Origin: Eledone cirrhosa
Taxonomy: Eukaryota
Length of the DNA stretch: 64,000 nucleotides
Direction: 5' to 3'
NCBI GenBank assembly: GCA_964016885.1
Contig: CAXHJY010000109.1
Span: forward strand, 186,001-250,000
Shown here: one piece after another, positions 15,090 to 61,536 of the stretch
How positions within the stretch are numbered: position 1 is the stretch's first letter
Layout: each line of letters opens with the position of its first letter
Position numbers and translations under genes: made by a program
Notes under the pieces: model-generated
What the model saw: only the letters and a program-made list of their open reading frames with translations
What the model was told of the DNA's origin: nothing
The model's database searches: none

Positions 15090-15226
15090 AACGAAGGAAA
15101 TGTGGTAAGGAACGAGATGGACCATAACACACCAAAGTACTCAATACTTAGGGTAGTAGAGTGGGTAATAGGAACGAGTAGGACCCCGACGGCAGAGCTC
15201 AAGCCGTTTCGACGGCTAATTCTGGA
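15090..15226 (-). mobile_element. Family C short insert (3' half of a hammerhead plus about 100-nt tail) in TA tract
   Basis: Minus strand: CCAGAATTAGCCGTC-GAAA-CGGCTTGAGCTCTGCCG-TC-GGGGTC...TTCCTTCGTT(AT)n; recurs at 21139, 29413, 42624, 49394, 49594, 61292 and 61430. Confidence 0.8.
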
Positions 15227-15791
15227 TATTCACATATATATATATATATATATATATATATGTGTGTGTATATGTGTGTGTGTGTGTGTGTATGTATGTG
15301 TGTGTATATATATATATATATGTGTGTGTGTATATATGTGTGTGTATATGTATGTGAATGTGTGTATGTATGTTTGTGTGTGTATATGTATATGTATGTA
15401 TGTATGTATATATAAATATATGTGTGTGTGTATATGTATATATGTGTGTGTGTGTGTGTGTGTGTGTGTTTATATATGTGTGTGTGTGTATATATATATA
15501 TAAAATAACTACTGTAATTAATGAGATAATTCCAGTTAATTGGTTGCCCTCTTGAGATCAATAACTACCAATCAGTAATTATGTATTGAACTCCATTGAT
15601 CTCTCTCTTTCTTAAAAACAAATGAAAATCTCTGGGACCGACTCCCTGGAGATGGATTGTGACTTTGGGGTGTAGAGCCAACCCCACCCCCGTAGCAAAT
15701 ACAGCAGCAGCAGCCCCACCATTATCACCACCACCACCACCACCGTCATCACCATCATCATTGTAACCTCTATCAGAGCCATCATTGTCAT

Positions 15792-17021
15792 TACACTACC
15801 ACTTTACAGAGTGTACTGGGTGTATTTTATCATGTCACCAACACTACCACTTTACAGAGTGTACTGGGTGTATTTTATCATGTCACCAACACTACCACTT
15901 TACAGAGTGTACTGGGTGTATTTTATCATGTCACCAACACTACCACTTTACAGAGTGTACTGGGTGTATTTTATCATGTCACCAACACTTCCACTTTACA
16001 GAATGTACTGGGTGTATTTTATCATGTCACCAACACTACCATTTTACAGAGTGTACTGGGTGTATTTTATCATGTCACCAACACTACCACTTTACAGAGT
16101 GTACTGGGTGTATTTTATCATGTCACCAACACTTCCACTTTACAGAGTGTACTGGGTCTATTTTATCATGTCACCAACACTTCCACTTTACAGAGTGTAC
16201 TGGGTCTATTTTATCATGTCACCAACACTACCACTTTACAGAGTGTACTGGGTGTATTTTATCATGTCACCAACACTACCACTTTACAGAGTGTACTGGG
16301 TGTATTTTATCATGTCACCAACACTACCACTTTACAGAGTGTACTGGGTCTATTTTATCATGTCACCAACACTACCACTTTACAGAGTGTACTGGGTGTA
16401 TTTTATCATGTCACCAACACTACCCACTTTACAGAGTGTACTGGGTGTATTTTATCATGTCACCAACACTTCCACTTTACAGAGTGTACTGGGTCTATTT
16501 TATCATGTCACCAACACTACCACTTTACAGAGTGTACTGGGTGTATTTTATCATGTCACCAACACTACCACTTTACAGAGTGTACTGGGTGTATTTTATC
16601 ATGTCACCAACACTACCCACTTTACAGAGTGTACTGGGTGTATTTTATCATGTCACCAACACTACCACTTTACAGAGTGTACTGGGTCTATTTTATCATG
16701 TCACCAACACTACCACTTTACAGAGTACTGGGTGTATTTTATCATGTCACCAACACTACCACTTTACAGAGTGTACTGGGTGTATTTTATCATGTCACCA
16801 ACACTACCACTTTACAGAGTGTACTGGGTCTATTTTATCATGTTACCAACACTACCACATTACAGAGTGTACTGGGTGTATTTTATCATGTCACCAACAC
16901 TACCACTTTACAGAGTGTACTGGGTCTATTTTATCATGTTACCAACACTACCACATTACAGAGTGTACTGGGTGTATTTTATGACACCAACACTACCACA
17001 TTACAGAGTGGACTGGGTGCT
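15792..17021. repeat. 48-bp minisatellite ACACTACCACTTTACAGAGTGTACTGGGTGTATTTTATCATGTCACCA, about 25 copies
   Basis: 16-aa periodic ORFs; reverse complement resembles the SINE A interior AAAGCACCCAGCACTCACTGTAAA. Confidence 0.95.
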
Positions 17022-17654
17022 ATTTAAGTCACATATTTGTAAACAAGTGTGTGTGTGTGTGTGTCTGTATTCTAATGTGTATGTGTATGTATTCTAGTAT
17101 ATATGTGCCTATATTCTAGTATGTATGTGTATGTATTCTAGTGTGTGTGTGTCTGTATTCTAGTATATATGTGCCTATATTCTAGTATGTATGTGTATGT
17201 ATTCTAGTATGTATGTGTATGTATTCTAGTGTGTGTGTGTGTGTGTGTCTGTATTCTAGTGTGTGTGTGTCTGTATTCTAGTGTGTATGTGTCTATATTC
17301 TAGTATGTATGTGTATGTGGTGTAATTACCTCCCAGTAAGACACCAACCCTCAACTGAGCTTCTACTGTCCTCTCACCCACCAGTATTTTACTGTCCTGT
17401 CCATACCCACCAATATTGTTTCTACCTCAAATTTCCTTAATTATATTTACTTAAGCCTTACACACACGCACACATACATATATATATGTGTGTGTGTATA
17501 TGTATATCTGTGTAGAGAAAATTAGTTTCGTTAGCTGGAAGGTGTTAAACTATCTCCAGATGTATTCTCTCTTCACTTGTCATTAAATTCCACCATTTTT
17601 CACATGTAACTTCCATACTTTATTTGTCTTTTTCTTTTTAAATATATTTATGCT

Positions 17655-17875
17655 ATTATATAGGAAACTAGATGTGGTGTTTTGGGTGGCAGGGTGTAAG
17701 GGTATTATACTAAAATATGTTTATATTTACACTATTATATAACAAACTAGATGTGGTGTTTTGGGTGGCAGGGTGTAAGGGTATTTTACTAAAATCTTTA
17801 TATTTACACTATTACATAGCAAACTAGATATGTGTTTTGGGTGGCAGGGTGTAAGGGTATTATACTGAAATATGT
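17655..17875. repeat. Three copies of an 80-90 bp unit (AAACTAGATGTGGTGTTTTGGGTGGCAGGGTGTAAGGGTATT)
   Basis: Direct inspection. Confidence 0.85.
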
Positions 17876-18202
17876 TACTCATTAATGTTTTGTTCCTTTC
17901 CTTGTTAAGGTGGCCAAGTGGCTGAGGCATCAGTGTTGGATTAAATTACTTGTGGTATTTGTTTTGGCTCTTTGCAGCTTTGAGTTCAAACCATAGACTT
18001 TAGTAAACATTTCTTATCAAGCAGATGTTTGGAACAAAACACAGTGCTTATCTTTATATACTTACTTTACTCTGTTCTAAACTATTATAATTGTGTTTGG
18101 ATGCACCCATTTTGATTTTCAAATTTTCTCTCTTTGTTTACAGTTCTATCTACATGTTTAAAGTATTCTAAGACCAATTTGTAGTCAGTGGCTCTGGAGT
18201 TT

Positions 18203-59400: not shown

Positions 59401-59559
59401 ACACTCCCTCACATTCACGCACTCGGACGCACATTCGTACACACATAGGAGTATCAGATGGTAGCCTGGCGTCTCCAACAAAGAACAGGCAGGGGGGTCA
59501 GCCCTCGGCCTCCTACCATTTCATCCTACCAGAGCCTCACTCTCGCTCGATGCAGCAAC

Positions 59560-59776
59560 AGCGTGCTGGATGAGACCCGACGGCTGGACTCGCACTAGAT
59601 TATGGCTGGACCTGATTAAGGAAGATCTCCAGAAGCTCCCCTCGGAGGATACAGAAGAGCTAGCAGCGGACCGCCAGCGATGGAGTGCACTGCTGGACCG
59701 AGTCGGCTCTTTACACGATGGCCCCCTCTGGATCTACAGACATAGGATGACCCCAATCACATCGAGCAATAGATGA
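59560..59776 (+). pseudogene. RTE-type LINE C-terminal fragment
   Basis: RPDGWTRTRLWLDLIKEDLQKL...ELAADRQRWSALL matches the RPxGxPRxRWxDxIxxDL...AxDRxxW pattern. Confidence 0.65.
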
Positions 59777-59912
59777 GGTTGTTTACAGAACAACCGATTC
59801 TTTTATGTCATAATCGATAGCTTTGGGGTTGTTCTAGATGGATTTACGTTCAGATTCAGGTATTTCCTGGTCACATATATACATTCGTATAAATACATAT
59901 ATGTATATATAC

Positions 59913-60262
59913 AATATTAAATAAATGGAAAACTATATTTATAAAACCATATTTATTTCATTATATATATTTCGGGGATATCATATTAACAATATGCTAT
60001 GCCTTCATCAGACAAAATACAATATAAACAGTTTTATAGATAAATATATTCGACATACCGTAATAAACATCAACTTCATTTGAAGAGGTTTACTCTAGCA
60101 GTCTATGTTTATTACGGTATGTCGAATATATTTATCTATAAAACTGTTTATATTGTATTTTGTCTGATGAAGGCATAGCATATTGTTAATATGATATCCC
60201 CGAAATATATATAATGAAATAAATATGGTTTTATAAATATAGTTTTCCATTTATTTAATATT
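59913..60262. mobile_element. Perfect 158-bp-arm inverted repeat with two opposed hammerheads (59954-60019 minus, 60156-60221 plus), family D
   Basis: Arms 59913-60070 and 60105-60262 with a 34-bp spacer; TATTTTGT-CTGATGA-AGGCATAGCATATT(GTT)AATATGATATCCCC-GAAA-TATATA-TA-ATGAAATA. Confidence 0.9.
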
Positions 60263-61291
60263 TAATATTGTAAATATACTCCAAATATTTGTCGAGTGCT
60301 TTTATATCAGTTATAAATATTTACTAGTTGTAACCCAACAATTTTAAATATAACCTTACATATATGTATATATAAATATATATGTATATATACTTCAATA
60401 GCATTTTAATAAATATTGCCTGTACAGGTAATCAAAGTGTGTGTACATTTTTGGGACACCCGGTATGTGTGTCTGTATATATATACACACACACACATAT
60501 ATATATATATATATATATATACACACATACACACATACATACATACATACATGGAGAAAGCGGTAAAATTAAGCCGATAGAAATGAGCTCCTGTTCCGTT
60601 AAGACGTCTATCATTTTTACCTTCGATCTAACCAAATCAGCTTCGATGATCTGACTAACTGTATTACTCATTCACTCCTCATACTTCTCACTCCCCTCCC
60701 CTCACCCCCTCACACATACACACTTTTTTATGTGTGCTCGCACGCTTATTTGTGTGTGTGTGCTTGTCCATTATTTTACCAATAAGCACTACATGTTATT
60801 AATACCACCACCATCACTACAGTTGTCTCCTGTCTCCCTCTCCTTTTATCGATCTACCTGGCCACTAATTACACACACATATATGTGAATATATACATGT
60901 ATATATATATATATGTGTATATATTTGTATACACACACACGCTGTCTATTGTCAGTATTCGATTTCACTAAGAGCTTTTAATATCAATCATGTCTTTTTA
61001 CTATTTCGTATCGTGCGAATACACTTGGTTGTTCATTTTACTTTGAATCGTACACACACACGCACACGCACACACACACACACACACACACACACACACA
61101 CACACATTATATATACTGTAGTATAAGTTTAGTAGAAATAAGAGCACTCAGTCCATAGGACGAGTTAAGTATAATTAGTTACAACAGTGACATATACAGG
61201 TTAGTTAAGTTTCGTTGGGTTATACACTCCGCCTGTAATAAGATTAAAAATAGCCACCGGCCATGGGGTTTTTAGAAAGTGTATATATATA

Positions 61292-61536
61292 TAGGAAAAT
61301 GTTTAATCCCGACGGCAGAGCTCAAGCCATTTCGACGGCTATTTCAGTCCAGAAATAGCCGTCGAAGCGGCTTGAGCTCTGCCTTTGGGGTTAAACATTT
61401 TCCTATTACCTACTCTACTTTATATATATAACGAAAGAGGTGTGGTAAGGAACCAGATGGACCATAACGCATCAGAGTACTCAATACTTAGGGTAGTAGA
61501 GTGTGTAATAGGAAAATGTTTAACCCCGACGGCAGA
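61292..61536. mobile_element. Two adjacent family C (subfamily variant) inserts, the first folded back
   Basis: 61292-61419 and 61430-61536; variant GGAAAATGTTTAA is present in all arms. Confidence 0.8.

Follow-up and report, generated by a model that had tools for sequence, protein, structure and literature searches.

Short head-to-head inserts with a fixed one-sided tail in Eledone cirrhosa suggest two primings on a (TA)n target by a likely Penelope-like element

A stretch of 64,000 nucleotides from Eledone cirrhosa (NCBI GenBank assembly GCA_964016885.1, contig CAXHJY010000109.1, positions 186,001 to 250,000 of the forward strand), hereafter the window, contains short inserts of a repeat family, here called family C, in which a long arm is joined head to head with a short inverted arm that ends at the same nucleotide in copy after copy. 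The question raised by this locus is how an inversion with a fixed outer end and a variable centre is produced. The favoured answer, judged rather probable, is that two separate target-primed reverse transcriptions, one on each side of a cut (TA)n run, are followed by end-joining, in support of the twin-priming idea of a preliminary description of the window. Family C itself is probably an endonuclease-bearing Penelope-like element, a membership that can be called only likely since neither a full-length element nor the 5' half of the hammerhead ribozyme was found in the window.

The window is repeat-rich DNA of animal type, with microsatellites and minisatellites and with 8.4% of its length in (TA)4 or longer runs. 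Searches by BLAST and nhmmer with family C arms yielded 14 arms in eight inserts, each adjoined by TA repeats. Only 3' ends are represented, the longest ∼142 nt, and whole inserts are 100-210 bp. The two-armed, head-to-head layout is found in six of the eight inserts, and the inserts at 15.1k and 61.4k have a single arm. Element positions are numbered from the 3' end of the family C element; both arms are antisense and run inward from the flanking (TA)n.

The outer ends are fixed. All six short arms start at position 78/79, and the six inverted-arm ends given in the preliminary description (21330, 29612, 42829, 49394, 49717 and 61292) were each confirmed to fall on the final A of TTCCTA; their distance beyond the putative GTC (GUC) cleavage triplet is the 19 nt stated there. 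The (TA)n reported to follow is present at all six ends, with the qualification that at 49394 it is merely TATA before CA repeats begin. Seven of the eight long arms start at position 1, always with ACGAA after TA repeats, and the eighth (61.3k) stops on its outer side at position 65, next to an abutting insert. The long end lies 97 nt and the short end 19 nt after the triplet, giving a one-sided tail of 78 nt. If each eligible word of the element is assumed equally likely, the chance of six equal short-arm ends is 0.004 for the three TAT words and 4e-6 for the 12 TA words. The TAT microhomology suggested earlier does not by itself fix the end, the two other TAT words being used by none of the six short arms. 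One long and one short arm are combined in all six two-armed inserts, an outcome with a probability of 0.016 if starts were independent and 50:50.

Palindromes are near-symmetric at three loci. At 21k the long arm (21140..21273, minus strand, positions 1-134 with the 78-nt tail) is separated by a single base (21274) from the short arm (21275..21330, plus strand), which ends in TTCCTA followed by (TA)n. At 29k the long arm (29414..29551, minus strand, positions 1-138) is followed, behind a 3-nt centre, by the short arm (29555..29612, plus strand). At 61.3k a short arm of an older subfamily (61292..61345, minus strand) is joined bluntly to its long arm (61346..61419, plus strand). The view of family C inserts as fold-back palindromes holds as stated for these loci and not for the other three. 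At 42k the long arm (42625..42741, minus strand) ends at position 115, missing GAAAC by 5 nt, and beyond a junction filler of ∼25 nt with partial likeness to the element's own sequence (42742..42766) the short arm (42767..42829, plus strand) reaches further, to position ∼142. At 49.4k the short arm (49394..49453, minus strand) reaches position 138 and the long arm (49452..49546, plus strand, with a 12-nt tail deletion) ends at position 107, the joint being a 2-nt CT overlap. These two inserts are lopsided, the short arm holding 27 nt (42k) and 31 nt (49.4k) absent from its own long arm. In the insert at 49.6-49.7k the long arm (49595..49653, minus strand) is 59 nt of tail only, and the short arm (49655..49717, plus strand, positions ∼142 to 79) is joined to it via a T run; the arms represent element positions 1-59 and 78-142, with a gap of 18 nt and no overlap. 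The one-armed inserts are a long arm at positions 1-136 within (TA)n (15091..15226, minus strand) and an arm at positions 1-106 (61431..61536, minus strand). At 49385-49717 a (TA)n run of ∼48 bp has a family C insert on each side, tail to tail, another pair abuts at 61419-61431, and a decayed sister-subfamily copy is located between (TA)n runs at 32230..32295 (minus strand; nhmmer E 3.8e-6).

The six loci have six distinct centres, in agreement with the preliminary description, and the junctions look like end-joining products. The inner ends of the short arms are at positions 132, 134, 136, 138, 142 and 142, which is 12-22 nt 5' of GAAAC, and those of the long arms at positions 59, 106, 107, 115, 134, 136, 138 and 138; in total 10 of the 14 arms stop 12-22 nt before GAAAC. 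The word TTTAG just 5' of this stop zone might, at a guess, be an intron acceptor, only two copies reaching that far. The stop zone is also where loop II of the ribozyme would be expected, a position that favours fold-back self-priming as an alternative: a distal-primed complementary DNA (cDNA) would snap back, whether at stem II or at another small hairpin, copying itself, and the copy, cut or annealed at TTCCTA/ATT, would join the other (TA)n end. Such a process would give both arms the same alleles from a single use of the RNA, would explain a fixed end on ATT, the word most often cut by the Anolis enzyme according to PMC11167929, and resembles the proposals of self-priming in PMC3846280 and of resolution by a nuclease in PMC8557442; the 42k filler, moreover, can be read as the native 5' strand of stem II. 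Against it, the paired primer and loop of at least 3 bases that snap-back needs are found at none of the six junctions. The single-base centre at 21274 is too short for a priming hairpin, a second family described below also has a 1-nt centre (20831), no priming base pairs are present at 29k and 61.3k, and the centres have no loop sequence in common. Furthermore, the short arm exceeds the long arm at 42k, 49.4k and 49.6k, without any overlap at the last, and a short arm that extends further 5' than the long arm could have been copied from it only if deletions followed. Fold-back self-priming is thus considered possible but unlikely.

Four sequence runs were aligned to the single arm 29414-29551, namely two raw reduced-representation runs (X21 and X22, of the same species code and from different samples of one study) and two contig sets, of which X1 may itself be the source of the window. 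Family C reads numbered 22,654 of 12.5 million in a reduced-representation run. Among the rows listed, the largest class of loose ends in X21 and X22 is (TA)n before 29491, the short-arm end, with 3,543 of 22,654 and 3,080 of 23,156 aligned reads, respectively; in X1 this class comprises 102 of 17,265 contigs and ranks second to 29497. A like junction of a sister subfamily forms the class at 29503 (1,261 and 1,311 reads). In the reads of this subfamily loop III, a stem I strand and the 5' part are changed and GAGCTC and the (TA)n junction are kept; related pieces also occur in the second contig set, X5, which has another organism code. None of 161 X5 contigs matched at 99% identity or more and seven matched at 95-99%, no loose end at 29491 was present among the rows listed, and the run was not used as support. 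In X21 and X22, respectively, 7,135 and 7,213 molecules end at 29544, which is the final T in an AATT that is probably the library cut site. Since the 54 nt and the 96-nt median loose length of these molecules add up to the 150-nt read, ∼50% and ∼43% of the molecules cut beside the centre appear to be short arms.

The joints in the reads are also informative. Of 23 joints 15 are listed, 13 of them between opposite strands; 12 of the 13 have one side at 29541-29551, and in seven of those 12 the other side is in the tail (29452-29485), giving non-overlapping arms as at 49.6k, a kind of joint that speaks against fold-back self-priming. Behind 29541 the loose ends of all four runs agree for their first 11 letters and diverge between data sets thereafter, a pattern that fits, without proving, a genome-wide 5' limit at one place. 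Perfect hairpins are a known class of artefact, and fold-back chimeras from sequencing or assembly would accord with the finding that no joint listed has a symmetric centre. Nevertheless, the junction of short arm and (TA)n is present in raw reads that number in the thousands and come from two further samples, chimeras would not share one end base, the 61.3k arms differ at 5/54 sites and the centres carry added bases. An artefactual origin is therefore regarded as highly improbable.

The arms of an insert are paired by their alleles. Mismatches between the long and short arms of one locus are 0/56 (21k), 0/58 (29k), 0/37, 0/29 and 5/54 (61.3k), and only two of the 120 combinations of the five long arms and the five short ones equal the true pairing. 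Over the 28 nt common to all arms the true pairing gives 3 mismatches compared with a mean of 16.6. The 49.7k short arm was excluded from this test, having no overlap with its long arm. The variants are therefore shared by both arms as had been described; they are not copy-specific as also described, being instead common subfamily alleles in the reads. In first-mate-plus reads of X21, 29499 is changed from G to A in 4,034 of 10,020 reads, 29504 from G to A in 3,457 and from G to T in 2,718 of 10,395, and 29517 from T to A in 3,376 of 10,859. Since the variants are common alleles, the pairing of arms indicates a single source for each insert and not private mutation.

Common alleles also leave room for an inherited palindrome, in which several hairpin-shaped masters, either similar to miniature inverted-repeat transposable elements (MITEs) or in the form of transcripts that read through palindromic inserts, are copied whole and their centres then erode; several masters could yield allele-matched arms, and long palindromes are unstable. 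This explanation is contradicted by six centres at six loci, by two one-armed copies, by ends that are not mutual inverted repeats and carry the 78-nt tail on one side only, by at least 13 distinct opposite-strand joints in the reads and by the finding of no transposase among the 75 frames given to Pfam, and is held to be improbable. A MITE or foldback DNA transposon, for which inverted termini on both sides and an invariant interior would be expected, was rejected as an identity for family C on the same 78 nt at one end only, six centres and two one-armed copies. The simplest reading of allele pairing within each locus combined with six distinct centres is that the inversion likely forms de novo at each insertion, as the preliminary description had proposed, and the one-armed and non-overlapping copies are in agreement with this conclusion.

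In the favoured scheme of two primings, the inserts would be the 5'-truncated 3' ends of a likely Penelope-like retroelement. A GIY-YIG nuclease presumably encoded by the element would cut both (TA)n strands, and each of the broken target strands would prime cDNA inward from its 3' end, one cDNA starting at a distal site and the other at a proximal site 78 nt upstream. Both primers may be served by one RNA or by two RNAs of one source copy, since the alleles shared by both arms point to a single RNA or single source copy as the template of both cDNAs. The proximal cDNA would run 55-65 nt to the limit 12-22 nt before GAAAC, and the distal cDNA, which must cross or displace the proximal one, would often stop early (positions 59, 106, 107 and 115). 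Host end-joining would then link the two cDNA 3' ends with an overlap of 0-2 nt, a few added bases or filler, and a palindrome would arise only if the long cDNA extends as far as the short one. The 5' limit may be set by where the RNA starts, by stalling or snapping off at stem II, or by low processivity. The strict rule of one long and one short arm together with the early stops of long arms suggests an ordered process.

A more specific version of the two-priming scheme was also considered, in which family C and its relative at 20.8k form a long-tailed Penelope-like lineage, one complex primes twice on one RNA (at distal and proximal sites 78 nt apart), the long cDNA displaces the short one and stem II sets the end of synthesis; this version is tentative and rather doubtful. 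At the 61.4k insert 14 bp of the right host flank recur in inverted form across (TA)n (61535-61602), joined to the arm at a shared GA, which looks as if a cut (TA)n end had folded back and self-primed as a hairpin, on the target and not on the cDNA. An inverted flank of the same shape occurs at 38875-38915 and 39131-39170, where ∼17 bp of the left flank is inverted beyond a (TA)n run holding an insert of another family.

The ribozyme assignment of family C is predicted from motifs. A sequence predicted to form the 3' half of a type I hammerhead, composed of GAAAC, stem III, a palindromic GAGCTC loop and GTC, is located at 21237..21259 (minus strand), and stem III of family C has 5-6 bp on the sense strand. 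The 5' ribozyme half, CTGANGA, was found in none of the 14 family C arms. The putative hammerhead identity is helped by a second long-tailed hammerhead family at 20706-20888 (fragment at 61913-61948), which has a like layout and carries CTGATGA. This family has a 57-nt short arm and a tail of ∼68-75 nt ending in a CA repeat, and in the palindrome 20774-20888 the 1-base centre (20831) lies 1-2 nt 5' of CTGATGA. The sequence GTATTGAGTAC follows the triplet at offsets of 37 and 40 nt in the 20.8k family and family C, respectively, and is a candidate protein-binding motif common to both.

Fold-back is also seen in three further hammerhead-bearing families of the window, the 20.8k family among them. 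The insert at 10809-11139 has the whole hammerhead motif in both arms, a centre 68 nt 5' of the motif and a long arm that exceeds the short-arm end by a tail of ∼31-34 nt, and the insert at 59907-60268 has its centre ∼77 nt 5' of the motif. Since these centres lie 1-2, 68 and ∼77 nt 5' of CTGANGA, the inversion is independent of stem II, and the location of centres outside the ribozyme is a further point against fold-back self-priming. The snap-back of cDNA at ribozyme stem II offered in the preliminary description is not supported, in view of these centres and of the three loci at which the short arm extends beyond the long one; the long 'stem II' of the palindromes is a product of the inversion itself. 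As to the remaining features of these families, the long end of 10809-11139 seems to enter an inverted piece of its own family, relatives of which lie at 12094-12201 and 39059-39136, and 59907-60268 has 169-nt arms that are 98% complementary around a 24-nt centre, a whole hammerhead motif in each, and a relative at 6236-6384. A 48-nt inverted pair (43717-43764 and 44083-44130) flanks a hammerhead-like motif (43844-43883) as well as a short interspersed repeat with further copies at 43424-43552 and near 21.5k. At 55610-55760 two units in tandem bear CTGATGA, with a minimal-hammerhead-like motif, decayed, on the minus strand.

Several results weigh against the two-priming scheme or the identity of the element. 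No symmetric-centre read is present among the 15 of 23 joints listed; an AATT cut beside the centre would deplete centre-spanning reads, and the centres thus stand without read confirmation. Four joints begin at 29497, the point at which the sister subfamily diverges, and may be effects of alignment, joints may conceal unaligned letters, and 506 further rows lie beyond those from which the loose-end classes were taken. The base-by-base analysis covers eight family C inserts, a small sample. Rfam gave no hammerhead match for family C and no match in the window at gathering score; at low score, the palindromes at 20690-21345 and 10790-11150 match for the most part models of microRNA precursors or other hairpins, and never a hammerhead. 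Single family C arms fold no better than shuffled sequences (z 0.01 to 0.38). No reverse transcriptase or GIY-YIG gene could be linked to family C: none of 75 window frames, chosen by complexity from 379 frames of at least 60 amino acids, had a Pfam match, and a 44-amino-acid open frame over the long arm had no relative at E 0.001 among longer proteins (34 candidates), a weak result. The 78-nt tail is twice the described length, and the lopsided inserts could stem from later deletion in unstable palindromes. Finally, the Anolis enzyme showed no difference in start sites between strands in vitro (PMC11167929), a behaviour that does not itself yield one long and one short arm.

Exact-pattern scans for additional family C copies found none in metagenome contigs, none in viral contigs and, among prokaryote genomes, only an actinomycete locus (L001), a lone 25-nt match in DNA of 74% G+C that was dismissed as chance. 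A tRNA-type internal promoter was not evident in family C by eye, no scan having been made. Elsewhere in the window are two long minisatellite arrays with units of ∼40 and ∼33 bp (15800-17010 and 18330-19380) and an assembly gap of 200 N (7083-7282).

As the architecture is known, the surprise for a specialist is modest. The value of family C is that a very abundant family (eight inserts in 64 kb) with polymorphic sites in both arms allows the two models to be separated by counting, and its 78-nt tail indicates that the two start sites need not lie 30-40 nt apart. Repeat annotators may misfile such inserts as MITEs or microRNA-like hairpins. If the long-tailed, stem-II-stop version were true, the genome would be a very large archive of frozen intermediates able to decide, for all elements of the class, whether twin priming or self-priming applies, and the ribozyme would be the first in a pseudo-long terminal repeat (pLTR) to act as a structural stop and not by cutting.

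In L1 twin priming, two primers from the two target strands produce an inverted 5' part, with a poly(A) 3' end, variable second priming and non-overlapping arms. The 49.6k insert has this shape, with non-overlapping arms and an 18-nt gap. However, family C has no poly(A), its second start is fixed and five of six inserts copy the same stretch of RNA twice with overlapping arms, on which grounds an L1-type twin-primed insertion was rejected. Non-LTR retrozymes (LTR, long terminal repeat), described by Li et al. 2026 (bioRxiv 10.64898/2026.07.22.740005) as short, non-coding, hammerhead-related and proposed to derive from Penelope-like pLTRs, are head-to-tail tandems of whole ribozymes, whereas family C is dispersed, head to head and has half a ribozyme; this class was rejected for the lack of tandem units and of a whole hammerhead in family C. 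Hammerheads of the Penelope type (PMC4209133) and family C are alike in GAAA, a short helix III, a palindromic loop and an NUH triplet, and differ in that the CUGANGA half is absent from 14/14 family C arms and that helix III is longer (5-6 bp), the family C ribozyme being a prediction only. Hammerhead motifs of Schistosoma, as described, form opposite-strand pairs 100-700 bp apart, a likeness to the layout of family C.

The closest likeness is to Penelope-like elements, of which the endonuclease-bearing groups are Penelope/Poseidon, Neptune, Nematis and Naiad (PMC8557442). Full-length copies of such elements have one open reading frame that encodes a telomerase-related reverse transcriptase with a GIY-YIG nuclease, and a partial tandem arrangement surrounds it with a direct pLTR, in which a type I hammerhead with a palindromic loop 3 is found. 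Craig et al. 2021 (PMC8557442) report an inverted 5'-truncated copy, a 30-40-bp tail at one end and a microsatellite bias; Arkhipova et al. 2013 (PMC3846280) report for Pen2a_Av of Adineta vaga a 31-bp tail and palindromes at the inverted junction, with self-priming proposed; and Goubert et al. (PMC8969392) give inverted pLTRs and short 3' extensions as marks for curation. How the inverted copy forms is presented as an open question in PMC8557442 and PMC11167929. Family C has in common with the units so described strong truncation at the 5' end, a head-to-head arrangement with an inverted, likewise truncated copy (six of eight inserts), a tail on one arm with a fixed end (6/6 short and 7/8 long arms, and the same junction in reads), palindromes and microhomology at the junctions, and AT-rich or microsatellite targets (8/8 inserts). 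The tail lengths are 78 nt in family C, ∼68-75 nt in the 20.8k family and ∼31-34 nt in the 10.8-11.1k family, compared with 30-40 bp, a typical value in these papers and not a formal criterion, outside which family C falls. In addition, no coding sequence or direct pLTR is seen for family C in the window, and the whole insert is only 100-210 bp. The architecture behind the stereotyped integration proposed in the preliminary description is not new, corresponding to the inverted 5' copy and one-sided tail of Penelope-like elements (PMC8557442, PMC3846280, PMC11167929).

Biochemical results for PAc, a Poseidon element of Anolis carolinensis (Frangieh et al. 2024, PMC11167929), provide a further comparison. 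In vitro PAc, a predicted dimer, acts on AT-rich DNA by cutting and extending both strands, and two internal RNA start sites bound the genomic tail; ribozyme cleavage is not needed and the cleavage product is not the template (PMC11167929). Family C likewise has two fixed internal starts bounding the tail, extension from both cut strands in the favoured scheme, and an AT-rich target. The distal start is 97 nt after the ribozyme cut in family C and, by subtraction from numbers in PMC11167929, ∼85-92 nt in PAc. The start spacing is 78 nt compared with 30-40 nt in PAc, and each two-armed family C insert uses one of each start, whereas PAc shows no strand difference in vitro (PMC11167929). The accounts in PMC8557442 and PMC3846280 favour nuclease resolution and self-priming, respectively, while the lopsided inserts of family C favour two primings. 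Relative to these reports the architecture of the family C insert is known, and what is new is the 78-nt tail, the second long-tailed family, the fixed 5' stop zone within the predicted ribozyme, and the lopsided and non-overlapping inserts that argue for two primings.

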